Assembly: GCA_964437455.1 (NCBI GenBank)
Contig: CAYTGG010000001.1
Location: 20,930-84,929, forward strand
Origin: Candidatus Woesearchaeota archaeon
GTDB taxonomy: Archaea; Nanobdellota; Nanobdellia; Pacearchaeales; GW2011-AR1
Reading direction: 5' to 3'
Length of the DNA: 64,000 nt
This document shows, piece by piece, positions 3,114 to 59,887 of this stretch (position 1 is its first letter; each line of letters opens with the position of its first letter). Made by a program: the position numbers and the translations under genes. Under the pieces are notes generated by a model. It saw only the letters and a program-made list of their open reading frames with translations, ran no database searches and was not told where the DNA came from.

Positions 3114-3341
3114 ATGTTCTTGAAAAAAAGCCCTCCACAGTATATTCCAGTTAGACCCAGAAGAATGAATCATCTTATCTTTCTAGGTTATTTAATTATA
3201 GGCTTTTATTTTATAAATTATCCTTTTGAATTTATAGAAGTTCCTGATTTTATTTTAGATTTTAATCAATGGATAATTCTTGCTGGAGGAATTCTTATGT
3301 TGATAGGCGCATTAAATTATTTTAAATTAAAAAAGAGATAA
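3114..3341 (+). CDS. Small membrane protein (2 TM), hypothetical
   Basis: 75 aa, hydrophobic; no recognisable family. Confidence 0.25.
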   Translation: MFLKKSPPQYIPVRPRRMNHLIFLGYLIIGFYFINYPFEFIEVPDFILDFNQWIILAGGILMLIGALNYFKLKKR

Positions 3342-3503: not shown

Positions 3504-3636
3504 ATGAAGAAATATTTGCTTCTCATAGAAGATGAAAAGGTCTGGCAGAAATTTAAAGATATTATTAATAAAGATATCAATACAGAAATTATAGATTTAA
3601 TAAAGAAAAGAATTAATTCGGAAGTTAAAAAAAATG
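3504..3636 (+). CDS. Small ORF (44 aa), stop overlapping the start of the 621-aa gene (ATGA); possible leader or first gene of the giant-protein array
   Basis: MKKYLLLIEDEKVWQKFKDIINKDINTEIIDLIKKRINSEVKKNDK*; ATGA overlap at 3634-3637. Confidence 0.3.
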
Positions 3637-5499
3637 ATAAGTAAATTTTTTCCTAAATATAAGAAGTCACAAGTAACTTTATTTATCATATTGGCTATAA
3701 TGATTGTTGCAGGAACAGTCTCTTTTATAGTATTTAAAGATCTTTTTATTCCTGGAGAAATTCCACATAATTTAGAACCAGTTTATGATACTTTTCTTTC
3801 TTGTTTAAATGAGGATATAAAAGTTGGAATTGATATTTTAGAAAGTCAAGGAGGTTATATTAAATTACCAGAATTTGAATCTGGATCAGATTATATGCCC
3901 TTTTCCTCTCAATTGAACTTTGTTGGAACTTCTATTCCTTATTGGTATTATGTTTCTGGAAATAATATCCAAAAAGAACAAATTCCTAGTAAGATAGAAA
4001 TGGAAAAACAATTAGAAAGTTTTGTTGAGGAGAAAATTTATGATTGTTCATTTGAAGATTATTATAAACAAGGTTTTGAAATATCTTTTGGAGAACCTAA
4101 AGTAAATATTAAAATACTCAAAAAAGGAGTTGAAGCTGATATTAATATGAATTTAGCTATTAAAAAAGGAAATGATAGTGTTAGAGTAGAAAATCATAGT
4201 ATTTTAGTTAACTCTAATCTAGGAAATTTGTATGAATCTGCTAAAAAAATTTATGATAAAGAACAGGAAGAATTATTTTTAGAAAAATATACTCTAGATG
4301 TTTTAAGATTATATGCTCCTGTAGATGGAGTTGAATTAACCTGCAGTCCTCTTATATGGAATGCTAACGAAGTTTTTGATGAACTTGAAAATTCAATAGA
4401 AGCAAATATTCTTGCTTTGAAAACAAAAGGAGGAGATTATTCTTTAAAGAAAAAAGAAGATAAATACTTTGTCTTAGACTTAGATGAAAATGCAAGATTT
4501 ATCACTTCTAAAAATTTTAGTCATTCTTTTGAGGTCTCACCCTCTGAAGGATCTATTCTAATTGCTGAACCAGTAGGAAATCAACCAGGTTTAGGTGCAT
4601 TAGGATTTTGTTATGTACCCTATCATTTTGTTTATTCCTTAAAATATCCTGTTCTAGTTCAGGTATATTCTAATAAATTCCAAGAAATTTTTCAATTTCC
4701 AGTCGCAGTTATTATTCAAGGAAATCAACCTAGAGAACCTTTAGAAACTAATGCAATTGAATTCGGAATTCCTGATTTTTGTAAATATAAAAATACATTA
4801 ATGAAAGTAAAAACTTATGATATGAGTTCAAATTCTATTGACTCTCAAATTTCTTATGAATGTCTTGGAACTGTTTGTGATATTGGAGAGACAGAAAACG
4901 GAATTTTAACTTCAGCATTTCCACAATGTGTTAATGGTTATATAATTGCAAAATCAGAAGGATTTGAAGAAACAAAGTATCTATCTTCTACAACTTCTTC
5001 AAAAAATGTAGAAATATTCTTATATAAACTTTATAATTTGAGTATAGATCTGAATTTAGAAGGAAGAGAATATAATGGAAATGCTATAATTCACTTTAAT
5101 TCTGATAAGAATTCGAAAACAATAGTATATCCAGAAAGAAAAAGCGTTGAATTAAGCGAAGGACAGTATGAAATTAAAGTTTATATTTATAGAAATTCTT
5201 CATTAAAATTGGAAGAAGTTACTTATGAACAATGTGTAGATGTTCCTAAATCAGGTTTAGGAAGTTTTTTTGGTTTAACAGAAGAAAAATGTTTTGAAAT
5301 GAAAGTTCCTGAGCAAATAATTCCTCAATCTTTAGCAGGAGGAGGAACACAAAATCATTATATTTTAGATTCTGATTTAAAAAATTCAAGAAATATTAAA
5401 ATAAATGTACAAAGTCTTCCTGAACCAAAAACTATTGAAGATTTACAAAATAATTATTTATTATTTGAAGATAAAGGCTTAAATATTTTATTTAGATAA
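3634..5499 (+). CDS. Membrane-anchored (N-terminal TM) extracellular protein, 621 aa; partner of the giant protein
   Basis: N-terminal TM helix LFIILAIMIVAGTVSFIVF, then a large Cys-containing ectodomain; a 24-nt gap to the 2051-aa gene suggests co-transcription. Confidence 0.6.
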   Translation: MISKFFPKYKKSQVTLFIILAIMIVAGTVSFIVFKDLFIPGEIPHNLEPVYDTFLSCLNEDIKVGIDILESQGGYIKLPEFESGSDYMPFSSQLNFVGTSIPYWYYVSGNNIQKEQIPSKIEMEKQLESFVEEKIYDCSFEDYYKQGFEISFGEPKVNIKILKKGVEADINMNLAIKKGNDSVRVENHSILVNSNLGNLYESAKKIYDKEQEELFLEKYTLDVLRLYAPVDGVELTCSPLIWNANEVFDELENSIEANILALKTKGGDYSLKKKEDKYFVLDLDENARFITSKNFSHSFEVSPSEGSILIAEPVGNQPGLGALGFCYVPYHFVYSLKYPVLVQVYSNKFQEIFQFPVAVIIQGNQPREPLETNAIEFGIPDFCKYKNTLMKVKTYDMSSNSIDSQISYECLGTVCDIGETENGILTSAFPQCVNGYIIAKSEGFEETKYLSSTTSSKNVEIFLYKLYNLSIDLNLEGREYNGNAIIHFNSDKNSKTIVYPERKSVELSEGQYEIKVYIYRNSSLKLEEVTYEQCVDVPKSGLGSFFGLTEEKCFEMKVPEQIIPQSLAGGGTQNHYILDSDLKNSRNIKINVQSLPEPKTIEDLQNNYLLFEDKGLNILFR

Positions 5500-5522
5500 A
5501 ATGAAAAATAAAGAAATAAAAA

Positions 5523-8500
5523 ATGAATAAAAAAATCCTAATAATTTTTGGAATGTTTCTTTTAATAGGAATTTTCTTAATAATAAGTATCTCAGCAACT
5601 TATATGCGTTCTAATGCTGCTTATACTACTTCTGGAACAAGTTTTAATTATAATTATGGATATTCAGGAGAATGGCAGGTTGATAGTTCTATGTGCGAGG
5701 CTGGACAAGATTTTGTAATTCAAATTGCTCCTTTTGGATGTGAGCCAGCTGTTGTCAGAAGTGATTTACTTGAAGAGCAGAATGTTCCTGTTTATTGTCA
5801 ATTAGGAGCTACTAAAATAAATCCTTTAATAGAAGTTGAAGCTATTGAAAGCATAGATTTTTCTGGAAATTATCCTAAAGAAATTGCTGGAGTTGGTTTT
5901 CATCCTGCAAAGGCAGCTTTGGGATTAGATGGAGATTTAAATTCTCCAATTTTGAATAATATTGGTTATGTAGTTATATTATTAAGACAACAATCAAATG
6001 AGTCAGAAATGCCAGATTATGTATCAGGAAATTTAACTGCTAAAATAAGATATGATATAGAAGATGCTTATGGTATCGGAGATGCAACTTTTTATCTTCC
6101 TAAATTAGATGATTTAGAATGGAATTCAAGAAAGAATCAGTATAGTTTTTGGAAAGGAAGAGGTTATCTAAGAGCAGAAGGAATTGAAACAGATGGAGCT
6201 TCAGTTTCTCTTTATGATGGAAAAATGGAAAAAATAACTTCTGTTAATCTAAAAAGAGGAGAAATCTCCAATAAGATTTATCTTCCTGGATTTGATTGTT
6301 TAGCTGGACTTAAATTGAAATTAGAAGGTTTAGAAGCTCCAGATACTCGAGCTAAGTTAGATATTAATGGAGAAATAATAGAAGTTGCAAAAGGTGAAAA
6401 GTTTTTAGAAGAAAGATGTCAGATTGAAGATATTAATAAAAAGGGACTTATAGATTTTGTTGAGATAAAATGCAGAGAAGATGAGCAAGGATTATTTGGA
6501 GGAGAAACTTTTCCTCTAAAAATTAGTCCTAAAATTAATTTGAGTATTTATAACAAAGAAGGAAATTTAATCAAAAAGGGTAGCTTTGACATAGGAGATT
6601 ATCTGTATGATTATGGGCACAAGAGAGTATATTTAGGATATGCTAATACTTTTGGATATAGTAATGAAGAAAAAGATTTGTATGTCCATCTTGTTGCTAT
6701 TCCTTCTTCTGTTAATAAGGATAAATTAACTAATGAAGAAATTGATTCTTTTACATCTTATGATAAAGGAGTTATGGGTAAAGAAGAAGTGAAAAGTATT
6801 TCTAATTTAATAAAAAGTTCATTTGAAACTTATAAGAGTATCTCTATAAATATAGGGAAGTGGATGATAAAAGGACAAAATCTAAGAGCTCTTTCTCTTG
6901 AAGAGGGAAAAACTGAGATTTTTGATTCTCAAATACAACTTCATGGTTTTGCAGGAGCACAAAATATTAAATTTGATAATAAAAAAATTGAATATTATTA
7001 TGAGAAATCTATGGAAAGTTATGATAAAATTGTAAATTCATATTCTAATGAGAAACTTCCTTATGGATTATATGAAGAAGGAATAACTTCTGGAGAAGAA
7101 GCTTTTTACAGAAAAATTTCTCTTGCATTTAGCTTAGGACAAAAAAAGACTGCTTATGATTTGTGTGAAGAGTTTAAACAAAAATATCCTAATTCAGAAA
7201 AGAATTTAAATGAATTTCTTAATGAACTTTATAAATTCTCAAATAAAGAACTTTCAAGTATAGATGTTATAATTAATGGAAAATCAAGGAAAATCTCTTT
7301 TGAAGGAATATTTGAACCAAGTATAAATGATTATTCTGCTAAAATTTTTATAGAAGGAACAGATGGAAAAATTAATGAGATTACTCTGACTAAAGGGCAG
7401 ATATATTCCTTAGGAGAATTAAGAGGAGATAAAGACTTTATCTATACTTCTTATCTGGGAGAAGCTTATCCTCTACATTTTTCATTTATATCAAATAAAT
7501 GGCATTGGTCCTTTGATAAAAAAATCTGGAAAGAAGTTTCTATAGAAGAAGGAAATAAAATTAAAGAAAATATTGATGAATACTTTACAGGAAAATTAAT
7601 TTATCCAGATTTCATTCCCTCTTCTACTATAGTAAATTCTGAGGAAATTGATTCAACAAAGAAATTATTTTATTATTTAAGTAATTTAGATGATATAAAT
7701 AGTTTTGAAAAGGGAAAAGATAAATTAAGTGAAGAAGGATATAGTGGAAGTGTTACAGAAGAGTATATTAAACTTGTAGAACTTGAAGATAACTCAGCAA
7801 AATTAGAATTTAATCTTCATCCAAAGGGTTTTTGGAGCACTGCTAAGACAGTTACAATATCAAATGATAAAGGAACATTAACAGAAGATACTCCTGAGGA
7901 CTTTGGAAGTGATTTTATTTTTACACTTACTGATGTAACTCTTAAAAAATCAGCAAAAGTTTCTGTAATACCTACAATAGATTATGCAGGCTCTGAAACC
8001 AACTTTTCTTTTAAAATTGGAATTGATAAAAGAGCAATAAAACTTTCTCCTGATAAAATTGAAGAAAAGATAGAAAATTTAAATAAGAGCATTACAGATT
8101 GGGAAGAGAAATCAGAGAAATTAGGAAAAGTTGTGAAAGGACTTAAAACTGCTTGTTTAGCTACTGGTTTATATCTTGTTACTAAGAATTTTCTTTCAAA
8201 TGCAGGAGGAAAATCAATAGCAAGACAAAATATAATGAGATCAAAAGGAGGATGGAATGAAGAATGTAGTAAGCTGGTTAAAGAAGGAAACTATTCTTCT
8301 TTAAATGAATGCTTTACTAAAAATGGAGATAAAATAGAAAGTGATGTGAATAAATATTATGAACAATTAGAAAAACAAAATAATGAAATTAAGAATATGC
8401 AAGAGCCTTTTGAGAATAAAAACTGGTGGGGTGAAAAAAATGTAAATACCGAGGAATTTAAAAAAGTTTATTGTAAGAATGTAAGAAATGAGTTAAATGG

Positions 8501-11500
8501 TCTAGAAAGTACAAAGAAAATAGATTTAGGAGGAGGACAAACAAAGACAGTTTCTGAAATATTAAATGTTATACAAAATGATTGTGAAGGAATTACAGTA
8601 GAACAATTAAGAAGAATGCAGTTAAATTATAGATTGGAGAATATTGATTTGAATTTAAATGTTGCTGGAGAACAATTGGATATAGATTTAGCAAATGTTT
8701 GGGAGGATAATTATAAAGAAGCTGAGAGAGAGAATTTTGAAAAAGAAGCGATTGAAAAAGGAGTAATGAATCCTAATGCTATAAATATTCCTTCAAAAGA
8801 CTCAATAGACATTGCTTATTTTGGTTCTAAGGTTGCTTCATCTAGTAAATTAAGCATAAAAGAAGGAACTCCAATTCAATTAATAACATTTAATCATCAA
8901 GAGTATTATCTAGAATTAGAAGAAACAAAAAAAGGAGAGTTATATATTATAAAGAATGTTTATAATAGTGGTGGTAGCCTTCTAAAAGAAAATGATTTAA
9001 ATGTTGTATCTATTAAAGAAAGAGTAGGAACTATTAAGAAATATGACAAAAAATCTTATGAGAACAAATATGTAAACTCTGTTAGTGATCCTAAAAAACC
9101 TGTTTTGAAATATTATGAAACAGAGCCATATAAAGAGATGCCTGCTTTGGTTCCAGTTGATTTAGATAAAGGTTGGTATGTTTCTATAAAGCAAACTCTT
9201 CCTGTAATGGGAAATATTCAAAGTTATGATAAATCTGGAAAAGTTACTAGCTTTTATCTTTGTAATATTGGAGAAAATGGAAAAGAAGAGGATAGAGGAG
9301 GAGATGATATCTGTGAAATGATAAATACAGGAACAGGACAGCCATACAATCAATTTTATGGATTAGATGATTCAGAAGCTTTAAAAATTGTAAAATGTGC
9401 TGTAGAATCAATCGAACAAGCATCAAAACAATATGGAAATAGTAGAGTTACAATTAGGAATTCTTGTGATACTTTTACTGTTTATGTTGGAGAACCTGCT
9501 GTTGATGTTCCAGACGTTCAATGTCAAGATTTTATGTCTCCTAAAGAATGTCAGTGGTTATTTAATGTGTGTGATCCTGTTATCTGTCCTTCTAGTAGAT
9601 GTAATCTAGGAGGAAATTATCATGTAGCAGATGTAATTCAATCAGGAATTATTGGAAGCATTGTATTATGTTTTCCAAATATAGGAGAAGGAATATATAT
9701 TCCAGTATGTCTTACAGGAGTTCAAGCTGGACTTGACGCATATCTCTCTGTATTAAAATCTTATAGAGATTGTTTAACAGATTCATTAAAAGAAGGAGAA
9801 TTGATAGGAATCTGCGATGAAATATACTCTATACATTTATGCGAGTTTTTCTGGAGACAGACTCTACCTTTAGCAGAAATAGCAATACCTAAATTAACAG
9901 AATTTGCAATGGGACAGAATATTCATGGTGGAGGAGAATATCTTGGAGTTCAGGCTGCATGGGATAATGCTGGAAAATCTGCAGAATATTTTGCAAATTA
10001 TTATGCTTCAACTTCTTTTGAAGCATTTAAATCTAAAATAGTCGAGAAAGTAGGAAGTGAGATATGTGGAAGTTACTCCTCTGCTGTTTATCCTGAAGGA
10101 GGAGATTTATTAGATTCTCTAACAGAACCAGATTCTCCTCCTCAATATTATGGAAGATTTGATGAAATTACTTTAACTACTGTAACTAATCCTCCAACAT
10201 CACAGTATAAGGTATATTATCATATATATGCTGGAAAAGAATCAAGAGCTTATTATCAAGTTTATTTAAAAGAAGGTTATAAAAGCTCTTTTTATAAGGA
10301 TACCTCTTATAATAAAATAGTTGATTCAGGTTATATTTCTAAAGGAGAATATGTTTCTGAGACAAAAGACTTTACTGCACCTTCAGGATATCAACAAATG
10401 TGTATAGTTGTTAATGGAAAAGAAGAATGTGGTTTTAAACAAGTTTCAACATCTTTTGCTATTAATTATGTGGAAGATAAATATTTAGAAGAACAAGCAA
10501 GTCAAAAGGATATAACTTCAGAAAAAGAATGTATTTCTGGAAGTGCAAGCATTTATAGTGTCCTAAATCCAAATCTTCAAAGTGCTGTAGAAGAAATGAT
10601 TAGTCCTGAAATTTATAATAGAGGAATAACTAGAATATGCGCTACTAAGAATCCTGGAATAGGAACAGATACTAATGTAGAAGAGAAAAACTCTAGATGG
10701 ATAGATGTTGGTTATTGTGACGATGAGAATATGAGATGCTGGCTTGATTTAAGTAGTGTTAAAGAGGTTATAGAAATTCTTTATATTGAAAATGAAACAT
10801 TAGATTCTCTTACAAATAAATCTCTTAATGCTTTACAATCTGATGGATTTTTATCAGAAGAAAAATTTAAGGATATTCTTAATGAAATATCTCAGTGTGA
10901 AACTCCAGAAGAAAAAGTTAATAAAATAGATAAAACTCTTGATGAAGAAGATCTTCTCAATAGTCAAAAAGTCAGATTGTTTTTACAAAAAGGAGATATT
11001 TGTAAAGAATTAGCTGAAAAGAGTTATGGAGAAGAAAATGCTAAGAATATTCTAATTAAAGATTCAGATGAAGGTCCAGGAGTTTATGATTCTGATTCTG
11101 ATCAATTAGGAGATGAAGAAAAGAGAACTTGCCAGGAATTATTAGGTGAAGAAATAATAAAGATAGCTAGAGAAATTAAAAATGAGAAGAATATTGATGA
11201 CTCTAAAGTTAAAAATGATACAGGAGTTAAGAATTTTGAATGTTTAATATTGCAACTTGCTATGCAGGAAAGCTCTCTTAAACATTGTAAAGAGATTAAA
11301 GAAGGGGACTGTTTATATTGTGATGGGAATTTAGATAAAGTTTTAAAAGCTTCTGGAGATGGAAAAAGTTATGGAGTTATGCAAATAAATTTAGGAGCTC
11401 ATAGTAATATTGATGTTGAGAATTTTGAAGAGAATGTTAGATATGGAATTAATTATTTAATTAGTAGTTATTCTGAAACTTCTAAATATTACGAATGTCT

Positions 11501-11678
11501 TGATATTTATTATAACGGATGGAATCGGGCTTTAAGATATTATAATGGATGGAATACAGATTGTAGTAAAGGAAATGTTAATTATGTAGAAGAATTAACA
11601 GGTAAAAAGGATAAATCTTATTCTGGAAATACTAAAGAGGAAGTAATTAAATTATTTCCTAATATCTGCGGAGAGTAA
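5523..11678 (+). CDS. Giant secreted/surface protein (2051 aa) with N-terminal signal/TM, a Cys-rich central module and a C-terminal lytic transglycosylase (GH23/SLT, lysozyme-like) domain
   Basis: N-terminal hydrophobic ILIIFGMFLLIGIFLIISISA; the C-terminal ~180 aa carry SLT signature motifs in order (LQLAMQESSL, catalytic Glu, around nt 11268), SYGVMQIN, IYYNGWNRALRYYNGWN, i.e. the E-S / GLMQ / AYNAG pattern of family GH23. Confidence 0.8.
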   Translation: MNKKILIIFGMFLLIGIFLIISISATYMRSNAAYTTSGTSFNYNYGYSGEWQVDSSMCEAGQDFVIQIAPFGCEPAVVRSDLLEEQNVPVYCQLGATKINPLIEVEAIESIDFSGNYPKEIAGVGFHPAKAALGLDGDLNSPILNNIGYVVILLRQQSNESEMPDYVSGNLTAKIRYDIEDAYGIGDATFYLPKLDDLEWNSRKNQYSFWKGRGYLRAEGIETDGASVSLYDGKMEKITSVNLKRGEISNKIYLPGFDCLAGLKLKLEGLEAPDTRAKLDINGEIIEVAKGEKFLEERCQIEDINKKGLIDFVEIKCREDEQGLFGGETFPLKISPKINLSIYNKEGNLIKKGSFDIGDYLYDYGHKRVYLGYANTFGYSNEEKDLYVHLVAIPSSVNKDKLTNEEIDSFTSYDKGVMGKEEVKSISNLIKSSFETYKSISINIGKWMIKGQNLRALSLEEGKTEIFDSQIQLHGFAGAQNIKFDNKKIEYYYEKSMESYDKIVNSYSNEKLPYGLYEEGITSGEEAFYRKISLAFSLGQKKTAYDLCEEFKQKYPNSEKNLNEFLNELYKFSNKELSSIDVIINGKSRKISFEGIFEPSINDYSAKIFIEGTDGKINEITLTKGQIYSLGELRGDKDFIYTSYLGEAYPLHFSFISNKWHWSFDKKIWKEVSIEEGNKIKENIDEYFTGKLIYPDFIPSSTIVNSEEIDSTKKLFYYLSNLDDINSFEKGKDKLSEEGYSGSVTEEYIKLVELEDNSAKLEFNLHPKGFWSTAKTVTISNDKGTLTEDTPEDFGSDFIFTLTDVTLKKSAKVSVIPTIDYAGSETNFSFKIGIDKRAIKLSPDKIEEKIENLNKSITDWEEKSEKLGKVVKGLKTACLATGLYLVTKNFLSNAGGKSIARQNIMRSKGGWNEECSKLVKEGNYSSLNECFTKNGDKIESDVNKYYEQLEKQNNEIKNMQEPFENKNWWGEKNVNTEEFKKVYCKNVRNELNGLESTKKIDLGGGQTKTVSEILNVIQNDCEGITVEQLRRMQLNYRLENIDLNLNVAGEQLDIDLANVWEDNYKEAERENFEKEAIEKGVMNPNAINIPSKDSIDIAYFGSKVASSSKLSIKEGTPIQLITFNHQEYYLELEETKKGELYIIKNVYNSGGSLLKENDLNVVSIKERVGTIKKYDKKSYENKYVNSVSDPKKPVLKYYETEPYKEMPALVPVDLDKGWYVSIKQTLPVMGNIQSYDKSGKVTSFYLCNIGENGKEEDRGGDDICEMINTGTGQPYNQFYGLDDSEALKIVKCAVESIEQASKQYGNSRVTIRNSCDTFTVYVGEPAVDVPDVQCQDFMSPKECQWLFNVCDPVICPSSRCNLGGNYHVADVIQSGIIGSIVLCFPNIGEGIYIPVCLTGVQAGLDAYLSVLKSYRDCLTDSLKEGELIGICDEIYSIHLCEFFWRQTLPLAEIAIPKLTEFAMGQNIHGGGEYLGVQAAWDNAGKSAEYFANYYASTSFEAFKSKIVEKVGSEICGSYSSAVYPEGGDLLDSLTEPDSPPQYYGRFDEITLTTVTNPPTSQYKVYYHIYAGKESRAYYQVYLKEGYKSSFYKDTSYNKIVDSGYISKGEYVSETKDFTAPSGYQQMCIVVNGKEECGFKQVSTSFAINYVEDKYLEEQASQKDITSEKECISGSASIYSVLNPNLQSAVEEMISPEIYNRGITRICATKNPGIGTDTNVEEKNSRWIDVGYCDDENMRCWLDLSSVKEVIEILYIENETLDSLTNKSLNALQSDGFLSEEKFKDILNEISQCETPEEKVNKIDKTLDEEDLLNSQKVRLFLQKGDICKELAEKSYGEENAKNILIKDSDEGPGVYDSDSDQLGDEEKRTCQELLGEEIIKIAREIKNEKNIDDSKVKNDTGVKNFECLILQLAMQESSLKHCKEIKEGDCLYCDGNLDKVLKASGDGKSYGVMQINLGAHSNIDVENFEENVRYGINYLISSYSETSKYYECLDIYYNGWNRALRYYNGWNTDCSKGNVNYVEELTGKKDKSYSGNTKEEVIKLFPNICGE

Positions 11679-11692
11679 ATAAAAATAAATAA

Positions 11693-11776
11693 TGTGGAAG
11701 AAAGGATTCGAACCTTCGCAGGCACTAAGCCACGAGGGCCTAAACCTCGCCCGTTTGACCACTCCGGCACTTCCAC
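11693..11776 (-). tRNA. tRNA-Leu(UAG), long variable arm
   Basis: Reverse complement GTGGAAG..CGAGG-TTTAGGC-CCTCG..GGC-TTAGT-GCC variable hairpin..GAAGG-TTCGAAT-CCTTT-CTTCCAC-A; anticodon TAG. Confidence 0.8.
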
Positions 11777-11842
11777 ATATTCTGCTCAAAACAGATACTA
11801 CTTAAATGAAAAAATTTATATAAAAACTTATGGTTATGCTTT

Positions 11843-15694: not shown

Positions 15695-17194
15695 ATGAAA
15701 ATAAAAATAAAAAAAGAGGATGTTTATCTAATCATTGCAATTATAATTGCTTTAGGAACTATATTTCTTACATATTTGGGAGGAAAATCAACAGGTTTTG
15801 GAATTCTAGAAGATTATAATACAGAAGAAGAATGTGTAATTTCAGGATATTCTTGGATAAATGAAACTAACACAACTTGTACAAATATAACCACTTGTAT
15901 AAATGAAACAATTGAACAGTGTGAATGTTTAGAATATGAAATCATTAATGAAACAACTAATGAAACTGGAGACTGTATTAATTGGTCTTCTTTTGTTAAT
16001 GAAACCTGTTCTGAACAAGAAAATTGTGTAGAAGCTGTGATTGGAGGATATTGTACTGGAGATTGTAGCCCTTCTCATTTAGAGTTATGTAATGAAACAA
16101 ATTGTGAGGATATTGGAGGAGGATATTGGTATGATGAAACTTGTAATGTAGAAGAAGAATCTTCTTGTAGCAATAATTTAGAATTATGTAATGAAACAAA
16201 TTGTGAGGATATTGGAGGAGGATATTGGTATGATGAAACTTGTAATGAGGATGAATGTGATTCAGATGAACAATGTGATTCTGGTTATGAATGTGATGAT
16301 GGAGAATGTGTAATTTTAGAAAATGAAACTGAAATCTCTGAAGAAACTGAAACAACAGAATCTGCTTCTGAAAGTTCTGAAATTTCTGAGAGTATTACTC
16401 AAATAACTCCTAATTCTGAAGAGGTAATTTCCACAACAGAATTAACTATTTATGATATTTCAAAAATAGAATTAAAATCTTTACAATCTCAGGAAAATGT
16501 TTTGATAGCTAAAAATACAGGAACAGAACCTTTAAGCTCTTGTATACTTAAAGCTACAGGAGATTTATCTGATTGGATTAGTATTTCTGGAGAATCTAAG
16601 AATATAGGCTCTGGAGAAGAAAAGTCATTTAATTTTGTCTTGAATATTCCTGAAGGAACTAATCCCGGATCTTACAATATGGGTCTTTCAATAGAGTGCT
16701 CTGAATTAAGCAAAGGAAAAGAATTTTCTGTTAGTGTTATTAAAGAAACTTTTGAATTTGATCTTCTTAAAGTAAAGAAAATAAGAGATGAAAGAGTTAA
16801 AGCAGAATATACTCTTTCAGATTTATCAGGATTAGACCAAAGTATTAAATTAGATTTTAAACTTATAGATAATCAAAGTAAAAAAGTTTCTGAAACCACT
16901 GAGTTCAAAAATCTAAGTGCTAATCTTTCAAACAAGTTTTATACCCTTTTAGAAATTAATGAATCAGTAGAGGGAAATTTAACTTTAATGGTAGACTTAA
17001 ACTCAGAAACTTATTCAAGTTCTGTCCAAGAGCCAATAGTTCTTACTTCTCCACCAATTTTAGGTTTTGCTGTCTTTGATAACATAGGAGATTTAGGAAA
17101 CATAATTCTTTTAGTATCTTCTTTACTAGTATTATTTCTCTTAATCTTTTTAATAAGAAGAATTAGAAAGAGATCTAAAAAGAAAAATTCTTAA
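15695..17194 (+). CDS. Acidic Cys-rich repeat surface protein with N-terminal signal/TM, many N-x-T/S sequons, a C-terminal Ig-like region and a C-terminal TM anchor with basic tail
   Basis: Internal exact repeat LELCNETNCEDIGGGYWYDETCN x2 (nt 16083-16150 and 16176-16243); many sequons of the NET/NIT/NES type; C-terminus ...SPPILGFAVF...LLVLFLLIFLIRRIRKRSKKK resembles a PGF-CTERM-like sorting signal. Confidence 0.55.
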   Translation: MKIKIKKEDVYLIIAIIIALGTIFLTYLGGKSTGFGILEDYNTEEECVISGYSWINETNTTCTNITTCINETIEQCECLEYEIINETTNETGDCINWSSFVNETCSEQENCVEAVIGGYCTGDCSPSHLELCNETNCEDIGGGYWYDETCNVEEESSCSNNLELCNETNCEDIGGGYWYDETCNEDECDSDEQCDSGYECDDGECVILENETEISEETETTESASESSEISESITQITPNSEEVISTTELTIYDISKIELKSLQSQENVLIAKNTGTEPLSSCILKATGDLSDWISISGESKNIGSGEEKSFNFVLNIPEGTNPGSYNMGLSIECSELSKGKEFSVSVIKETFEFDLLKVKKIRDERVKAEYTLSDLSGLDQSIKLDFKLIDNQSKKVSETTEFKNLSANLSNKFYTLLEINESVEGNLTLMVDLNSETYSSSVQEPIVLTSPPILGFAVFDNIGDLGNIILLVSSLLVLFLLIFLIRRIRKRSKKKNS

Positions 17195-39866: not shown

Positions 39867-41147
39867 ATGAATTCCAAAATTGAATTTGGAGATAAAGTTA
39901 GAATTATTCTTGCAAAAGAGGAATATGAAGGAATTCTATTAGAATCTCCAAAATCTGAGAAGAATCTTGTTCTTTTAAAATTGGATTCAGGATATAATAT
40001 AGGATTTGATAAGAAAAAAATTTTTAATATAGAATTAATAAAAAAAAGAGAATTAGAAGAAGAAGTTCTAAATATAAAGAAAGATTCTTCAAAGCCAAAT
40101 ATAGCAATGATTATTACAGGAGGAACTATCGCATCTCGTTATGATTCAAAAACTGGAGGAGTCCGTCCTTTGGATACTCCTGAATCTCTTTTTAAATTTT
40201 ATCCTGAAATTTTTGAGAAAGTTAATGTTTTAAAAGTTGAAATTCCATTTATGAAAGCTTCTGAGGATATAGAATTTAAAGATTGGAAAAAGATTGCTAA
40301 ATTAACTGCAGAACTTTTAAATGATTTTAATATTAAAGGAGTTATTATTACACATGGAACTGATTTTCTTCATTATACTGCAGCTGCTTTATCTTTTTTC
40401 TTAAGAGATTTAAATAAGCCAGTTGTTTTAACTTATTCCCAGAGAAGTATTGATAGAGCAAGTAGTGATGCTAATCTTAATCTGCAATGTTCTGCTCTTG
40501 CAGCTATTTCAGATATAGCAGAAGTTATGCTAGTAGGACATGCTTCTACAAACGATAATTTTTGTTATGCTATTCCTGGAACTAAAGTAAGAAAAATGCA
40601 TACATCAAGAAGAGATGCATTTAAACCAATAAATTCTTCTCCCCTTGCTAAAATTTATCAAGATAGAATTGAGAAAATCTCAAAACATAAAATTAGAAAT
40701 AAAAATAAAATTAAAGTAGATGCTAAATATAATGAGAAAGTTGCTCTAATAAAATTTTATCCAGGACAGAATCCAAAAATTCTAGATTATTATTTAAAGG
40801 AAAAATACAAGGGAATTGTTATTGAAATGTCTGGTCTAGGACATGTTAATACAAAGACTACAGGAAGTTCTTGGATTAAAAAATTAAAAGAAATTCAGAA
40901 TAAAGGAGTAATTGTATGTGCGACTTCTCAATGCATTTATGGAAGAGTGAATCCTTTAGTTTATTCTAATGGAAGAAAAGTGTTAGAAACAGGAGTTATT
41001 TATTTAGAGGATATGCTTTCAGAAACAGCATTAGTAAAACTTGGATGGATCTTAGGACATAAGGAATGGATAAAAGATAAGAAGAAAATAAAAGAAAAAA
41101 TGTTAGAGAATATTTCTAATGAGATAAATGAGAGATTAAAAGAATAA
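39867..41147 (+). CDS. gatD: Glutamyl-tRNA(Gln) amidotransferase subunit D (GatD)
   Basis: N-terminal GatD-specific domain, then an asparaginase-like domain (IAMIITGGTIASRYDSKTGG ... HGTDFLHYTAAAL); 426 aa. Confidence 0.85.
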   Translation: MNSKIEFGDKVRIILAKEEYEGILLESPKSEKNLVLLKLDSGYNIGFDKKKIFNIELIKKRELEEEVLNIKKDSSKPNIAMIITGGTIASRYDSKTGGVRPLDTPESLFKFYPEIFEKVNVLKVEIPFMKASEDIEFKDWKKIAKLTAELLNDFNIKGVIITHGTDFLHYTAAALSFFLRDLNKPVVLTYSQRSIDRASSDANLNLQCSALAAISDIAEVMLVGHASTNDNFCYAIPGTKVRKMHTSRRDAFKPINSSPLAKIYQDRIEKISKHKIRNKNKIKVDAKYNEKVALIKFYPGQNPKILDYYLKEKYKGIVIEMSGLGHVNTKTTGSSWIKKLKEIQNKGVIVCATSQCIYGRVNPLVYSNGRKVLETGVIYLEDMLSETALVKLGWILGHKEWIKDKKKIKEKMLENISNEINERLKE

Positions 41148-41537
41148 TTATCTTCTTTTTTCTAGTAATTTTTTTATTTCTCTAATTTCTTTTTCTGCTT
41201 TTCTGTTTAAAGCATAATCATATTCAGATCTGATTCTATCTCTTTGTGCTTGTCTATTCTGACTCATTAAGATTACTGGTGCTTGAAGTGCTGCTAAACA
41301 AGATAAACATAAATTCAGAATTATAAATGGCCAAGGATCCCAATGTTCAACATAAGCAGTTATATTCAGATAAATCCAAATTGAAATTAGTACTCCTATA
41401 AATATAATAAAAGACCAACTTCCTGCCCATTTAGTAAGTCCATCTGCTGCTTTCTGTCCAAAGGTCCTTGGAATTTTAAGAATAACAGGAATTTCTTCAT
41501 GCTTCCTCTTTTTTTCTCTTTTTTTTATCATCTTCAA
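41148..41537 (-). CDS. DUF1003-family membrane protein
   Basis: TKWAGSWSFIIFIGVLISIWIYLN...PWPFIILNLCLSCLAALQAPVILMSQNRQAQRDRIR is the typical DUF1003 core. Confidence 0.6.
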   Translation of the reverse strand: MKMIKKREKKRKHEEIPVILKIPRTFGQKAADGLTKWAGSWSFIIFIGVLISIWIYLNITAYVEHWDPWPFIILNLCLSCLAALQAPVILMSQNRQAQRDRIRSEYDYALNRKAEKEIREIKKLLEKRR

Positions 41538-41655
41538 CTTTTTATTATTAAATAAATAAGATTGTTTCTATTTTTATAATTATCTAATAGTAATTTTAAA
41601 TTTTACTGATATTCTTTTTAATAAATTTTATTAACTCTCTTTCTCTTTTTAAATA

Positions 41656-43095
41656 ATGGAAAAAGAAGAATATACAAAATTAGGTTTTAAATGTGGACTA
41701 GAAATTCATCAACAATTAGACACTAATAAACTTTTTTGTTCTTGTCCTTCTGTTTTAAGAAGTGATAATCCAGATTATACTGTAGAAAGAAGACTTCATG
41801 CTATTGCTGGAGAATCAGGAGAAATAGATATAGCTGCTAAACATGAAGCTGAATTAGGAAAAAAGTTCTTTTATCAAGGATATGATACTACTTGCCTTGT
41901 TGAATTAGATGAAGAACCTCCTCATAAATTAAATAGAGAAGCATTAGAAATAACTTTACAAATATCAATTTTTCTTAAAGCTAAAATCTCTTCTTTTAGC
42001 CAAATTATGAGAAAGACAGTTATAGATGGAAGTAATACTACTGGATTTCAAAGAACTGTTTTAATAGCAAAAAATGGATATATTGAGACTAGTCAAGGAA
42101 AAGTAAAGATTGAAAGTATTTGTCTAGAAGAAGATGCTGCTAGAATTATAGAAAGAGATAAAGATAAAGTTATTTATCGTCTTGATAGACTAGGAATTCC
42201 TCTAGTTGAAATAACTACTTCTTCAGATATAAAGAATCCTGAACAAGCAAAAGAGGTAGCATTACTTCTTGGAAATATTCTGAGAAGTTGTAAAGTAAAG
42301 AGAGGAATAGGAACAATAAGACAAGATGTAAATATATCCATTAAAGGACATCCAAGAGTAGAACTTAAAGGAGTTCAGAATATGAAGACTTTTATAAAAA
42401 CAATAGAAAATGAAGTTGAGAGACAAAAAAATAATATCAAAATTAAAAGATTATTCTCTGAAGTAAGAAGAGTAAATATAGATAGTAATTCAGAATTTTT
42501 AAGACCGGTTCCTGGAGCAGCGAGAATGTATCCTGAAACAGATTTGCCTTTATTAAAAATTTCTAGAAAATTGATAGATAATGCTAAAAAGAATCTTCCT
42601 GAGTTGAGAACAGATATAGAGGATGAATTGAAGCAAAAAGGATTGAATTCTGAAATGATTAAACTTCTTCTAAAACAGAATAAACTTGAAGAGTTTAAAC
42701 AACTTTTAGAGATAATTCCTAAACCAAAATTAATTGCTAAGATTCTTTTAATTTTTCCAAAAGAAATATCAAGTCATAAGAAAATTTCAATAGAGAGGAT
42801 AAATAAGATTCTAGAAGAACAAATTTTTGATGTTTTATCTTTAGTTAAAAAAGAAAAAATTTCTGAGTCTCAAATTAAACATATTTTAGAAGAGATTATT
42901 GAAGGGAAAAATTTAGAAGAAGCAGTGAAAAATGAAGAAGTTGATATGCTAGATGTAGAGGAAAGGATTTTAAGAATAATTAAGAGTAAACAAGGACTTT
43001 CTGAAAAAGCTTATATGGGTTTGGTTATGAAAGAACTAAAAGGAAAGATAGATGGTAAAAAAGCTTTTGAAATTATAAAAAAATATCTTAAATAG
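41656..43095 (+). CDS. gatE: Glutamyl-tRNA(Gln) amidotransferase subunit E-type (GatE/GatB family; short, 479 aa)
   Basis: LGFKCGLEIHQQLDTNKLFCSCPS (GatE-style GLEIHQQL), LVELDEEPP, ICLEEDAARI, GIPLVEIT; the GatD partner is nearby. The length is closer to GatB, so the subtype is unsure. Confidence 0.7.
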   Translation: MEKEEYTKLGFKCGLEIHQQLDTNKLFCSCPSVLRSDNPDYTVERRLHAIAGESGEIDIAAKHEAELGKKFFYQGYDTTCLVELDEEPPHKLNREALEITLQISIFLKAKISSFSQIMRKTVIDGSNTTGFQRTVLIAKNGYIETSQGKVKIESICLEEDAARIIERDKDKVIYRLDRLGIPLVEITTSSDIKNPEQAKEVALLLGNILRSCKVKRGIGTIRQDVNISIKGHPRVELKGVQNMKTFIKTIENEVERQKNNIKIKRLFSEVRRVNIDSNSEFLRPVPGAARMYPETDLPLLKISRKLIDNAKKNLPELRTDIEDELKQKGLNSEMIKLLLKQNKLEEFKQLLEIIPKPKLIAKILLIFPKEISSHKKISIERINKILEEQIFDVLSLVKKEKISESQIKHILEEIIEGKNLEEAVKNEEVDMLDVEERILRIIKSKQGLSEKAYMGLVMKELKGKIDGKKAFEIIKKYLK

Positions 43096-43501: not shown

Positions 43502-44773
43502 ATGAAAAGAACTTATATTAATGAACTAAATATTGGAAAAGAAATTTTATTAAAAGGATGGGTTCATGAGATTAGAGAATTGGCTAAATTAAAATTTATT
43601 CTAATTAGAGATTGTACCGGAGTTGTTCAAACTGTTTTTAAAAGTAAAGAACTTATAGATAAAATTTCTAATCTTAGTTTAGAAAGTATAGTTGAAATAA
43701 CTGGAATAGTTAAAAAAGCAAAGATTAAAGCAGATCTTGCAGAAAAAAACTTTGAAATTGAAGTTTCAGATATTAAAATTTTAAATAAAGCAGAAAAGAC
43801 TCCAATTCATGTTAATGAAAAGACAACTATTACAGACTTATCAAAAAGATTGGATTATCGTTCTCTTGATTTGAGAAAACCAAAAATTTCAGCTATCTTT
43901 AAAATTCAGTCAGAAATTGCAAAGTATTTTAGAGAATATTTTAATAAAAAAAATTTTACAGAAGTTTTTCTTCCAAGCATTATTTCAAATTCAAGTGAAG
44001 GAGGAACTGATTTATTTTCTGTTAATTATTTTGAAAAAAAAGCATATCTTGCTCAGAGTCCTCAGTTATATAAGCAAATGATGGCTTGTTCTATTGAAAA
44101 TGTTTTTACTATATCTCCTGTTTGGAGAGCTGAGAAACATAATACAATTAGACATCTGAATGAATCTCGGCAAATGGATATTGAGATGGCTTTTTCTAAT
44201 CAGTTTTCTGTTATGAAGGAACTTGAGAAAGCTGTTGTTTATATTGTTAAAAATATTTTAAAAAGCTGTGAAAAAGAGATTAAATTACTTAATTTAAATC
44301 TGGAAATTCCAAAAGCTAAATATCTAAGTTATGACGAAACTGTTAAAATTTTAAATATGAAATACGGAGAAGATTTAACTCCTGAAGATGAGAAAACTCT
44401 TAATAAAAAATTTCCAAATTCATTAGTCTTTGTTCATTCCTGGCCTGTTGAACTTAAACCATTTTATATTATGCCCAAAAATGAAAATATTAATGCGAAA
44501 TTAAGCGAGGGTTTTGATTGTATTTATAGGGGTTTAGAAATAACTTCTGGAGGACAAAGAATTCATATTCCTCAATTACTTGAAGAAATGTTGAAAAAAA
44601 AGAAGTTAAATCCTAAGGATTTTAAAGATTATATTGATAGTTTTAGATTTGGAAGTCCACCTCATGCTGGTTGGAGTATTGGTCTTGAGAGAATCACTCA
44701 GTTAATTACTGAGCAGAAAAATATAAGGGAGGCTTGTATTTTTCCAAGAGATAGAACAAGAGTAAGTCCATAA
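43502..44773 (+). CDS. aspS: Aspartyl-tRNA synthetase (class IIb, archaeal type)
   Basis: LAQSPQLYKQ (AspRS QSPQ motif), QMDIEMAF, motif 3 GSPPHAGWSIGLERI, FPRDRTRVSP. Confidence 0.85.
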   Translation: MKRTYINELNIGKEILLKGWVHEIRELAKLKFILIRDCTGVVQTVFKSKELIDKISNLSLESIVEITGIVKKAKIKADLAEKNFEIEVSDIKILNKAEKTPIHVNEKTTITDLSKRLDYRSLDLRKPKISAIFKIQSEIAKYFREYFNKKNFTEVFLPSIISNSSEGGTDLFSVNYFEKKAYLAQSPQLYKQMMACSIENVFTISPVWRAEKHNTIRHLNESRQMDIEMAFSNQFSVMKELEKAVVYIVKNILKSCEKEIKLLNLNLEIPKAKYLSYDETVKILNMKYGEDLTPEDEKTLNKKFPNSLVFVHSWPVELKPFYIMPKNENINAKLSEGFDCIYRGLEITSGGQRIHIPQLLEEMLKKKKLNPKDFKDYIDSFRFGSPPHAGWSIGLERITQLITEQKNIREACIFPRDRTRVSP

Positions 44774-45420: not shown

Positions 45421-46713
45421 ATGGAATTTATCTCTATTGAAGAAGCAATTAATAAAAAAAAAGGTAATGTAGCTGTAAGAGGATGGGTGTATAGAGAGAG
45501 AGGAAGTAATGAAATTAAATTTATTGTTCTTAGAGATTCAACAGGAATTGTACAGTGTGTTTTATCTAAGAAAAAATTTGAATCACAGTGGGAAGAAATT
45601 GATAAACTTCATATAGAAAGTTCTATTGAGATTTATGGAAAAATAAAAGAAGATAAAAGAGCTCCTACAGGATATGAAATCGAAGTTGATAAAATAAACA
45701 TTATTGGAAAAGCAGAAGAGTTTCCTATTCAAAAAGATTTGAATGAGGAGCTTTTAGGAGATAGAAGACATCTTTGGTTGAGAAGTCAAAAAATGAATTC
45801 TATTCTTAAAATAAGAAGTACTGTTTTTGGAGCTCTACATGAATATTTTAGAAGTAAAGGTTTTTATGAGTTTCAGAGTCCAATAATAATTCCTGGAGGT
45901 GCAGAAGAAGGACCTACTTTATTTGAAATTAATTATTTTGGGAAAAAGATGTATCTAACTCAGACATGGCAGTTATATGCTGAAGCTGCAATTTATTCTT
46001 TAGAAAAAGTTTATTGTATAGCTCCTTCTTTTAGAGCTGAAAAATCAAAAACTTCTCGCCATCTTACTGAATATTGGCACACTGAAATGGAAGTTGCTTG
46101 GGCAAATCTAGACGATATTATGAATTATGCTGAAGAGATGGTTAAATTTGTCTTGAAGAAAGTTTTAGAGAAAAATAAAAAAGAATTGAAAATTCTGAAA
46201 AGAGATATCAAAAGATTAGAACCTTCTCTTAAAAAGAAATTTTCTAGAATAACCTATGATGAAGCATTAAAACTTCTTAAAGAAAAGAAAAAAATAAATA
46301 TTAAATGGGGAAAAGATTTGAGAACAATAGAAGAAGAGAAGCTTATGGAACTTTATGATACTCCTATCTTTGTTACTTCTTATCCTAAAGAAATAATGGC
46401 TTTTTATAAACCAAGAGATTCGAAAAATCCTAAAACAGCTCGTTGTTTTGATATGCTTGCTCCTGAAGCAAATGGAGAGTTAGTTGGAGGAAGTGAAAGA
46501 GATATTAATTTAGATGAGCTTAAAGAGGCTCTAAAATCAAAAGGAGAAAACTTAGAAGATTATTCATACTATTTTGAAACACATTCTTATGGGGCTGTTC
46601 TCCATGGAGGTTATGGTTTAGGAACTGAGAGATTAATAAAATGGATTTGTGGTTTGGATACAATAAAAGATGCAATTCCATTTCCAAGAACTGTTAGCAG
46701 AATGAAACCTTAA
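45421..46713 (+). CDS. asnS: Asparaginyl-tRNA synthetase (class IIb)
   Basis: LTQTWQLYAEAA and TEYWHTEMEVAW (AsnRS-type rather than the AspRS QSPQ/QLDxEM), motif 3 HGGYGLGTERLIKWI, IPFPR. Confidence 0.75.
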   Translation: MEFISIEEAINKKKGNVAVRGWVYRERGSNEIKFIVLRDSTGIVQCVLSKKKFESQWEEIDKLHIESSIEIYGKIKEDKRAPTGYEIEVDKINIIGKAEEFPIQKDLNEELLGDRRHLWLRSQKMNSILKIRSTVFGALHEYFRSKGFYEFQSPIIIPGGAEEGPTLFEINYFGKKMYLTQTWQLYAEAAIYSLEKVYCIAPSFRAEKSKTSRHLTEYWHTEMEVAWANLDDIMNYAEEMVKFVLKKVLEKNKKELKILKRDIKRLEPSLKKKFSRITYDEALKLLKEKKKINIKWGKDLRTIEEEKLMELYDTPIFVTSYPKEIMAFYKPRDSKNPKTARCFDMLAPEANGELVGGSERDINLDELKEALKSKGENLEDYSYYFETHSYGAVLHGGYGLGTERLIKWICGLDTIKDAIPFPRTVSRMKP

Positions 46714-58792: not shown

Positions 58793-59887
58793 TTATTTTC
58801 TAAACCTTTTATCAATATAATCAACTAATTCACTTCCTTTTATTTGAATGCTAGAGGGACCTGTTCTTATGTAAAACTCTTCTTCATCTTTTGTAGGTTT
58901 TAAAAAAACTGGCCTATCACTTTTTTTACATTCAATTCTTAAAATAGTTTTCTTTTCTAAAGATATCAAATCAAAATTTATTAGATGTAAATATCTTTTT
59001 CCTATCTTTTCTTTTATTATATTTGTTAGATGCAGACTTAATTTATCATTGTTATCAAATCTATCTTTTTCAGTTCCAATAATTTCTCCATTATTTGAAA
59101 CTCCTATAAACAAGATACCTCCTTTAGAATTTAAAAACGCATCTATTGTTTTTAGTGAGGCATATTCTATTTTTCGATCTATTTCTTGAGTATAAAGATT
59201 TACTCTTAAAGTGGATTTAAACTCTACATTTTCATTTTCTCCTTTTTTGATAATATTTTTTATATCAGAATAATCTTTTTCTGAGAATAATTTAGGATTT
59301 ATCTTTGCAAATCTTCTTATGACTTTATTCAGTAATCCTTTTTTTTCTTTTAAATAAATATAACCAAATATAGAGGATATTAATGCTCCAAATATTACAT
59401 AAACCATATTTTTCATAGAATGATGATAAATTCCCACAGTAATTTCTTGCATTAATATTATTTTTAGAAGATACTTCAAAAACTCAAGTCCAAATCCAAA
59501 TGTAACTGCAAAATTAAATGAGAAAAAGATTATTAAAAAATAATTTTTCTTTATTTGTCCACTTGAATATAAAATTAGCAATATCATAAATCCAATTAAA
59601 CTTATTGATATTCCGAAAAAAATGGATATTATAGTTCCTCTTATACTTCCTATAAAAAAAGTAGAAATAGCAAAAAAGAATAAAATCCACTCAAATTCTA
59701 CAGGAATATTTACTTCATATCTTCTTTTTATAATCTGAGGAAGAAATAGTAGTATAAGAAGAAAAATACTGGCTGACATCATATGCCACAGTTCTAAATA
59801 AATAGCGTTGAATATTGAGATAATTAAAATAAACTTTATTGCAAATAGCATATGCTCACGAATCCAGAAAAATTTCTTTAAATTCAT
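58793..59887 (-). CDS. Polytopic membrane protein (at least 6 TM) with C-terminal cytoplasmic AlbA_2/Schlafen-like domain (PF04326-like)
   Basis: C-terminus ENVEFKSTLRVNLYTQ...LKTIDAFLNSKGGILFIGVSNNGEIIGTEKD matches the AlbA_2 core (E.K...........i.AfaN..GG.l.iGv.d.G.i.G). Confidence 0.5.
   Translation of the reverse strand: MNLKKFFWIREHMLFAIKFILIISIFNAIYLELWHMMSASIFLLILLFLPQIIKRRYEVNIPVEFEWILFFFAISTFFIGSIRGTIISIFFGISISLIGFMILLILYSSGQIKKNYFLIIFFSFNFAVTFGFGLEFLKYLLKIILMQEITVGIYHHSMKNMVYVIFGALISSIFGYIYLKEKKGLLNKVIRRFAKINPKLFSEKDYSDIKNIIKKGENENVEFKSTLRVNLYTQEIDRKIEYASLKTIDAFLNSKGGILFIGVSNNGEIIGTEKDRFDNNDKLSLHLTNIIKEKIGKRYLHLINFDLISLEKKTILRIECKKSDRPVFLKPTKDEEEFYIRTGPSSIQIKGSELVDYIDKRFRK

Follow-up and report, generated by a model that had tools for sequence, protein, structure and literature searches.

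A conserved chromosomal operon for a giant exported protein with exchangeable C-terminal tips in a DPANN archaeon

We analyzed a stretch of 64,000 nucleotides (nt) from a Candidatus Woesearchaeota archaeon, a tiny and probably symbiotic organism (GenBank assembly GCA_964437455.1, contig CAYTGG010000001.1, positions 20,930 to 84,929 of the forward strand), hereafter called the window, to whose numbering all positions below refer. It contains a gene array that codes for a 621-amino acid (aa) membrane-anchored ectoprotein (p621), a 2051-aa giant exported protein and two small proteins. The array is no mobile element but an operon with a fixed place on the chromosome. What is conserved in its function is the role of a surface scaffold, and peptidoglycan cleavage is an add-on present in about 44% of the species. 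The explanation that we favor, with somewhat better than even confidence, is a conserved envelope operon in which a surface-tethered GH23 tip would cut bacterial peptidoglycan on contact.

The three open reading frames (ORFs) that an initial sequence-only reading had placed in this region are present at 3504-3644, 3634-5499 (621 aa) and 5523-11678 (2051 aa), all on the + strand. The 2051-aa ORF is, as stated in that reading, the largest of the window, the next largest encoding 810 aa. Several details were corrected: the small ORF encodes 46 instead of 44 aa, its overlap with the p621 gene comprises 11 nt (ATGATAAGTAA) rather than the 4 nt of an ATGA, and the spacer between the two large genes measures 23 and not 24 nt. 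To assess whether the gene order is conserved, we considered the 83 p621 loci from woesearchaeal and pacearchaeal relatives for which the sequence extended downstream by 1 kb or more. A homolog of the giant gene was located downstream on the same strand in all 83, and in 76 loci it started no more than 400 nt away. The earlier proposal of a single operon thus stands for the two large genes. The part concerning the 46-aa ORF (3504-3644, +; MKKYLLLIEDEKVWQKFK...) stands only partially, as near-identical homologs of this conserved small protein, with 15 invariant columns, occur directly 5' of the p621 homolog in only 37 of 81 loci. This ORF, whose 11-nt overlap covers the p621 gene start, is also predicted by public gene callers; its assignment as a ribbon-helix-helix protein was considered and dropped, with no support from Pfam or the Protein Data Bank (PDB). 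The proposal had furthermore overlooked a fourth conserved member of the array, situated outside the coordinates first described, namely, the gene at 3114-3341 (+) for a 75-aa protein with two hydrophobic segments. Using tblastn, we found a homolog on the same strand, 40-750 nt upstream of the p621 homolog, in 51 of 75 related loci. The median identity of this protein among relatives is 45%, and it had no match in Pfam, PHROG or NCBIfam. Its gene probably belongs to the same operon unit as those for p621 and the giant protein.

The surroundings of the array are equally constant. The frame rpS3Ae (-) ... TFIIB (-), rpS8e (-), LSm (+) and metallo-beta-lactamase (+) is identical in contigs of 447-765 kb, and it is the synteny of the pair in all 83 loci, between ribosomal-protein and TFIIB genes, that identifies the array as a fixed chromosomal operon. 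In the same genomes, the median identity amounted to 57% for p621, 53% for the C-terminal core of the giant protein and 58.5% for S3Ae; p621 and the giant core are about as conserved as this ribosomal protein. These observations bear on a possible origin from a virus or a conjugative element, of which the giant protein would be a remnant in the form of a tape-measure-like or VirB1-like carrier of a lytic transglycosylase. Such an origin would match a long, partly helical protein with a terminal soluble lytic transglycosylase (SLT) domain, as well as the phage tape-measure and secretion-system lytic transglycosylases among the PDB matches of this domain (see below). Nevertheless, we consider it exceedingly improbable and rejected it, because the housekeeping neighbors are identical across the related loci inspected, the pair is adjacent in 83 of 83 loci, and the giant core has no relatives in IMG/VR or among GenBank phages. 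In addition, a PHROG scan of all four array proteins returned no relevant match, and there was no integrase or other phage gene among the flanking ORFs scanned.

The giant protein (5523-11678, +) has a conserved core (about 1830 aa), which is joined to a GH23 tip by a flexible linker. We retrieved at least 686 homologs, with top E-values of 0; matches of this kind, obtained for p621 as well, are not due to chance. The 120 homologs listed contain 1700-3300 aa, and those with an organism label are assigned to Pacearchaeota, Woesearchaeota or Nanoarchaeota or are termed unclassified "archaeon". Together with the archaeal gene context, these labels agree with the previous identification of the organism as a DPANN archaeon. 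BLAST alignments covered residues 1-600 and 750-1830 of the core in essentially all of 119 homologs, whereas residues 600-750 correspond to a variable insert. The core had no relative in Pfam, PHROG, NCBIfam or the sequences of the PDB. A Pfam scan of the entire protein and of six overlapping segments gave, in the core, only TPR_6 with an E-value of 4e-4, which is below the cut-off, and coiled-coil noise. The profile of the full-length protein (alignment A1; full-length family alignments were built from 31-45 sequences) produced solely marginal matches to goose-type lysozymes in the PDB, located at the C-terminus. Structure-based searches were done with a model spanning residues 1150-2051 (902 aa), for which Foldseek retrieved only weak beta-sandwich matches from the PDB. 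This model shows beta-rich domains and a beta-sandwich at residues 1541-1642 (10143-10448, +).

The N-terminal export signal of the giant protein that had been noticed originally was recovered in the hydrophobicity scan, which showed a single strongly hydrophobic N-terminal segment at residues 1-25. The scan and the family consensus, which reads ...SAxY and is compatible with a signal peptidase I site, point to a Sec-type signal peptide (MNKKILIIFGMFLLIGIFLIISISA/TY; 5523-5597, +) that is predicted to be cleaved. The protein contains 43 Cys residues, ten of which are invariant and fall within residues 1334-1440. They form part of the block that is most conserved in alignments A1 and A2 (residues 1328-1510; 9504-10052, +), which also comprises a Gly-rich hydrophobic stretch (1366-1411) and the motif GGGEY. 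In the AlphaFold 2 model, the predicted local distance difference test (pLDDT) score of this block is below 50 at residues 1328-1399 and 1449-1506 and reaches 62-75 in between. Conserved blocks modeled with low confidence, present in both p621 and the giant protein, may fold only in a complex or oligomer. Compared with the public cluster representative (P0001), the giant protein shows five residue differences (positions 782, 1408, 1852, 1923, and 1929), two of which, K1923E and D1929S, are located inside the SLT domain.

The C-terminal tip is a GH23/SLT-type lytic transglycosylase domain (residues 1869-2049; 11127-11669, +). The motifs quoted in the sequence-only reading are in place, with LAMQESS at residue 1912, GVMQIN at 1951, and YYNGWN at 1996 and 2006; the codons (+) of Glu1916, GVMQIN and YNGW are at 11268-11270, 11373-11390 and 11541-11552, respectively. 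A Pfam search for SLT, proposed at that stage as a check, had a mixed outcome, since the sequence itself stayed below the cut-off, whereas family profiles were significant for GH23. The last 185 aa matched SLT (PF01464) at positions 16-103 of the 117 positions of the model, with an E-value of 0.025 and 14.6 bits as compared to a cut-off of 21.3 bits. A scan of the whole giant protein gave no SLT match, and the domain had no PHROG match and no relevant match in NCBIfam. It is thus because of the family profiles, and not of the single sequence, that the GH23 call is significant.

An iterated hidden Markov model (HMM) of the query-type domain, run against 119 relatives, also captured tails in which PF01464 was precomputed or had been verified directly, such as those of P0024, P0036 and P0042; the tail of P0009, which matches PF01464 with an E-value of 7.6e-20, was not reached. 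Alignment of the query subtype with canonical SLT tails using hhalign resulted in a probability of 93% and an E-value of 3.3e-7, in which Q-E-S was paired with V-E-S, GVMQI with GLMQL, and YNGW with YN-G. A profile of 18 domain sequences (A7) matched, in the PDB, goose-type lysozyme (4.1e-8), MltC (2.5e-6), EtgA (4.8e-5), a phage tape-measure protein (1.7e-4), Slt70 (6e-4) and MltE (1e-3). The PDB matches of the domain include, apart from EtgA, 9b45 (gp41) and 4hpe, and a Tn916-type hydrolase is among its solved relatives. The earlier expectation that the motif Glu aligns with a catalytic residue was borne out: Glu1916 pairs with the catalytic Glu in V-E-S of the SLT tails and in R-E-S of goose-type lysozyme, where Glu73 is the catalytic residue. 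Glu1916, G1951, M1953, Y2007, N2008, and G2009 are invariant in all 38 close relatives, Q1954 is present in 37 and the motif Ser in 33 of them, and the predicted fold of the domain may be lysozyme-like. Membership in GH23 and an apparently intact active site are established at the homology level. GH23 also covers chitinases and hydrolytic lysozymes. The domain might have a target different from murein, for instance chitin, a further polymer of N-acetylglucosamine (GlcNAc) or an archaeal glycan, or serve only to bind glycans. We judge this to be quite improbable. The elements E-S, G-[VL]-M-Q and A-L-R-x-Y-N-G, which form the signature of family-1 lytic transglycosylases, are invariant or nearly so, a near-invariance that argues for catalysis rather than binding only, and the modules that co-occur with the domain in relatives are peptidoglycan peptidases (VanY).

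In contrast to the core, the tip is not conserved throughout the family. BLAST coverage falls after about residue 1835, and the C-terminal ~200 aa are common to only about 40 of the 119 homologs. The drop is located at a linker that is acidic and disordered (residues 1838-1866; 11034-11120, +; residues 689-717 of the model, with pLDDT below 50), at which the homologs diverge and C-terminal modules are exchanged. To determine the distribution of tips, we inspected 57 species-representative loci with complete tails. An SLT domain, either query-type or canonical, was present in 25 of them and an unclassified Cys-His module in another 11, whereas the tails of the remaining 21, which measure 7-838 aa, contained neither. 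Some homologs have other arrangements: in P0069, VanY/LdcB follows the SLT domain, P0004 and P0092 combine SLT with the Cys-His module, and P0118 carries a CAP domain. The SLT domain does not belong to the system in every case; it is one of several interchangeable C-terminal modules. Considering that the scaffold is under housekeeping-like constraint and that most species lack SLT, the conserved function is that of a surface structure, to which murein cleavage is accessory.

The Cys-His module (alignment A5; P0119, P0060, P0004, P0092, and others) has a length of about 170 aa and was found in 31 of the 119 homologs, sometimes beside SLT. It is characterized by an invariant Cys31 and His119 (numbering of A5) and the pattern NCW...GHNAIFIEW...LFDWNG, and it matched no entry in Pfam or the PDB. 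An NlpC/P60- or CHAP-like identity received no support from Pfam or PDB sequences and is kept as a guess from the co-occurrence with SLT. As judged from its sequence, the module may be a novel papain-like wall peptidase. The addition of a VanY/LdcB carboxypeptidase to SLT in some homologs (P0069) would also suit a role of the GH23 tip in scavenging, rather than in an attack on a living partner, in which muropeptides, amino sugars or D-amino acids are freed from peptidoglycan debris to the benefit of a cell whose own biosynthesis is minimal. A muramoyl-tetrapeptide carboxypeptidase is often encoded in genomes of Pacearchaeota, for which an uptake of bacterial amino acids has been suggested (PMC11537232). 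We nonetheless rate scavenging as unlikely: tethering to a cell-bound scaffold of 1830 aa is more usual for enzymes that act on contact than for those that digest while diffusing freely, and the solved relatives of the domain include the wall-breaching EtgA, the phage tape-measure protein, and the Tn916-type hydrolase.

The membrane-anchored ectoprotein p621 (3634-5499, +) is the obligatory partner of the giant protein. At least 2234 homologs were found, with top E-values of 0; the 120 listed contain 600-690 aa, and no Pfam domain was present in any of these. At 50% identity (E-value of up to 1e-3), p621 corresponds to 5687 clusters, and it was found in 387 species-representative genomes. The best 80 genomes are all labeled Woesearchaeota, Pacearchaeota or Nanoarchaeota, except for one probable mis-bin. 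This is locus L067 (DATKUW010000047.1), labeled "Bacillota bacterium", which has an archaeal p621 homolog, the conserved 46-aa ORF, and a giant homolog downstream, and which is most likely a mis-binned Nanoarchaeota contig. The p621 of the window is identical to its public counterpart. Nothing significant was obtained when the p621 profile (A3) was compared to the PDB, and nothing relevant in PHROG and NCBIfam scans. The AlphaFold 2 model has a mean pLDDT of 71. Its lowest confidence, mostly with pLDDT below 50, is seen in the conserved blocks 82-115, 221-242 and 300-333.

Family motif, hydrophobicity and model define the N-terminus of p621 (3634-3741, +) as a basic leader of residues 1-12 that ends in KKS, followed by Gln13 and a hydrophobic helix at 13-36. 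The latter is the one strongly hydrophobic segment at the N-terminus (residues about 13-36; helix predicted at 10-34). The motif Q-[VIL]-T-[ILVM]-F is present in 114 of the 120 homologs, where it follows a leader of 5-29 aa that almost invariably ends in a basic residue and G, A or S, and it is retained in divergent relatives. The window protein reads KKS/QVTLF, Ser being the least typical residue at position -1. This arrangement resembles the class III signals (prepilin type) of archaeal EppA substrates, which have Gln at position +1. Based on these sequence features, there are roughly even odds that the N-terminus of p621 is a class III (type IV prepilin-like) signal peptide; alternatively, it looks like a signal anchor. 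The Pfam model Class_IIIsignal (PF04021) matched 3 of 26 N-termini of the p621 family, with a nonsignificant best E-value of 1.6, and the comparison with solved pilins gave E-values of 0.48 for the archaeal pilin 6w8u and 2.5 for an archaellin, neither of which is significant. A Pfam scan of 33 proteins of the window revealed no prepilin peptidase and no pilus assembly ATPase, nor were these present in the flanks of the relatives, and there was no second ORF with a p621-like class III signal in the window.

The C-terminal half of p621 (4789-5493, +) consists of tandem beta-sandwich domains of the transthyretin-like/CnaB/carboxypeptidase-regulatory type. Alternatively, the pair might serve first of all as an envelope lattice of the cell itself, similar to the two-component S-layer of Sulfolobus (SlaA/SlaB), in which p621 would be the membrane stalk and the giant protein the canopy. 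The SLT domain would then be incidental, an accessory tip that serves, for example, movement through bacterial biofilm or debris. This S-layer-like lattice overlaps with the explanation that we favor and does not exclude it, but on its own it has a rather small chance of being correct. The match of p621 to SlaB involves generic beta-sandwiches, and PDB profile and fold searches revealed no similarity of the giant core, in sequence or fold, to any S-layer protein. Furthermore, SlaB is anchored at its C-terminus and p621 at its N-terminus.

In the envelope operon that we favor, the genes for the 75-aa protein with its two transmembrane segments, often the 46-aa protein, the anchored 621-aa ectoprotein and the giant exported protein are seen to keep this order beside rpS3Ae and TFIIB. 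The giant protein would be exported through Sec, with cleavage of its signal peptide, and p621 would hold it at the cell surface, using its N-terminal hydrophobic helix, possibly of the prepilin type, as an anchor and projecting a stalk of beta-sandwich domains. On touching bacterial peptidoglycan, the tethered GH23 tip would cleave the beta-1,4 bonds between N-acetylmuramic acid (MurNAc) and GlcNAc (MurNAc-beta-1,4-GlcNAc), which would either breach locally the wall of a bacterium, be it a partner or prey, or release muropeptides. Several points weigh against this explanation. Peptidoglycan cleavage cannot be the core function, since more than half of the family is devoid of SLT. The conservation of p621 and the giant core at a housekeeping level is unusual for host-interaction proteins. 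The GH23 domain of the window is itself below the Pfam gathering threshold, with no match in PHROG and no relevant one in NCBIfam, and neither substrate nor reaction type is fixed by GH23 homology. The physical interaction between p621 and the giant protein is a putative one, suggested only by synteny and co-conservation, and the bacterial target is likewise putative. To our knowledge, no host or partner is known for Woesearchaeota or Pacearchaeota.

A more far-reaching interpretation, which we regard as speculative and improbable as it stands, is that p621 and the giant protein constitute a clade-defining host-interface organelle of Woesearchaeota and Pacearchaeota, composed of a stalk, a delivery scaffold and a host-matched "warhead". 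In such an organelle, a prepilin-type anchored p621 would carry the 1830-aa scaffold and the Cys-rich block (residues 1328-1510) would engage the target envelope. The warheads (SLT, SLT plus VanY, Cys-His hydrolase, or CAP) would be exchanged between lineages in accordance with the wall of the bacterial host.

The architecture of the giant protein had been considered undescribed in the sequence-only reading, which does not hold, as the family has been published as fam00969. Castelle 2021 reported giant murein-like lytic-transglycosylase proteins of up to 3000 aa in DPANN archaea under this name and proposed that they attach to or degrade bacterial walls (PMC8204110); the same article credits earlier sightings to Rinke 2013 and Castelle 2015. 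The idea of wall binding or degradation was repeated by Vigneron 2022 (PMC9723730) and in two further articles (PMC10936187, PMC11537232). More recently, Strock et al. 2025 demonstrated by experiment that other peptidoglycan hydrolases of archaeal origin are able to kill bacteria, and noted that genes of this type are prominent in Nanoarchaeota (PMC12352652). The giant protein resembles fam00969 in its pacearchaeal and woesearchaeal lineages, its size class of up to ~3000 aa, the SLT/GH23 domain and the proposed role at the wall. The published family is described by a size of ~2000-3000 aa, SLT, and lineage restriction, and we found 2051 aa for the giant protein, 1700-3300 aa for its homologs, and a precomputed PF01464 in many of them. 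Judged by the description of the family, the giant protein is almost certainly a member of fam00969. In the articles consulted, which treat this family only briefly, we found no description of a constant scaffold with a swappable tip, the obligatory p621 with its prepilin-like N-terminus, the small upstream genes or the fixed locus; these features refine a known kind of system and do not define a new one.

Among enzymes of known structure, the tip is closest to family-1 lytic transglycosylases and goose-type lysozymes (Slt70, MltC, MltE/EmtA, and EtgA), with profile homology at E-values from 4e-8 to 1e-3. It shares with these enzymes the catalytic Glu in E-S, G-x-M-Q and Y-N-G, and its predicted fold may be lysozyme-like, but it differs in a score below the Pfam threshold, Cys-rich insertions and a duplicated Y-x-G-W motif. 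Bacterial GH23 enzymes are periplasmic or lipoprotein housekeeping enzymes, whereas the domain of the giant protein is the tip of an archaeal surface protein. A lytic transglycosylase tethered to a large extended structure for local cleavage of peptidoglycan is likewise present in wall-breaching machines, namely, SLT of phage tape-measure proteins, EtgA of type III secretion systems, VirB1 of type IV secretion systems, and Tn916 Orf14/17-type hydrolases. The latter combine SLT with NlpC/P60 or CHAP, just as relatives of the giant protein pair SLT with a putative peptidase. In contrast to these machines, the giant locus has no nearby phage or conjugation genes, and its core has no homologs in viral collections. 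Moreover, the tip of the giant protein would cut the wall of another organism from outside, and not that of its producer.

Polymorphic toxins such as Rhs, CdiA and MuF possess a conserved delivery core with swappable C-terminal domains. The long conserved N-terminal region of the giant protein, its sharply defined recombination point near residue 1835 and the diverse C-terminal enzymatic modules are similar, but three differences were noted. First, no immunity gene is evident downstream of the giant gene: a gene for tRNA-Leu(TAG), encoded in the opposite orientation (11692-11777, -), begins 14 nt past its stop codon and leaves no space for an immunity gene or a downstream operon member. Second, the giant core is far more conserved, single-copy and in a housekeeping context. 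Third, its tips are wall hydrolases, whereas those of Rhs, CdiA and MuF are nucleases or deaminases. SPEARE proteins are giant surface proteins with protease and nuclease domains from a different lineage, the Nanohaloarchaeota. Neither these nor Sulfolobus SlaA/SlaB, whose anchor topology differs, show detectable sequence homology to the array.

The window is AT-rich, with a GC content of ~27%, and is clearly a region of the core archaeal chromosome. It encodes rpS3Ae, TFIIB, rpS8e, LSm, an RNase Z-like protein, deoxyhypusine synthase, FtsZ, MCM, and DNA ligase, as well as several aminoacyl-tRNA synthetases, GatD/E, rpL15e, nine tRNAs and rpL44e, the latter being a putative assignment by eye from the sequence. 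The JGI metagenome 3300001533 contains a contig that is essentially identical. Several neighboring genes were recorded in addition. A 499-aa predicted surface protein (15695-17194, +) has an N-terminal hydrophobic segment, a C-terminal transmembrane anchor and a duplicated Cys-rich block (LELCNETNCEDIGGGYWYDETCN twice), and it lacks a Pfam match. GatD and GatE (39867-43095) are situated just upstream of two paralogous class II tRNA synthetases of the Asp/Asn/Lys type (tRNA-synt_2 plus OB fold; 43502-44773 and 45421-46713, +), which are separated by a 192-aa ORF. Between a 189-aa ORF, with MCM just beyond, and DNA ligase, there is a gene (58793-59887, -) for a protein of 364 aa that carries a Schlafen AlbA_2 domain, which could be a defense or regulatory gene amid housekeeping genes.

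Woesearchaeota and Pacearchaeota belong to the DPANN archaea of highest abundance. For an interaction of some of them with bacteria, and not with archaea, the strongest hint from genomes is a surface protein with a murein-cleaving domain that, judging from its motifs, is apparently active; this hint has already been published. The presence of SLT is a poor proxy for the family as a whole, given that most members lack it, whereas the conservation of the scaffold resembles that of a housekeeping gene. What is gained is a domain of 186 aa with defined limits and an assigned catalytic residue, together with an obligatory partner and two small co-conserved genes that delimit the unit to be studied. 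As the type of tip varies by species on a constant scaffold, its correlation with co-occurring bacteria could predict hosts. Should the host-interface organelle turn out to be true, the array would be the counterpart, in archaea, of polymorphic effector systems, acting on contact and aimed across domains at bacteria.

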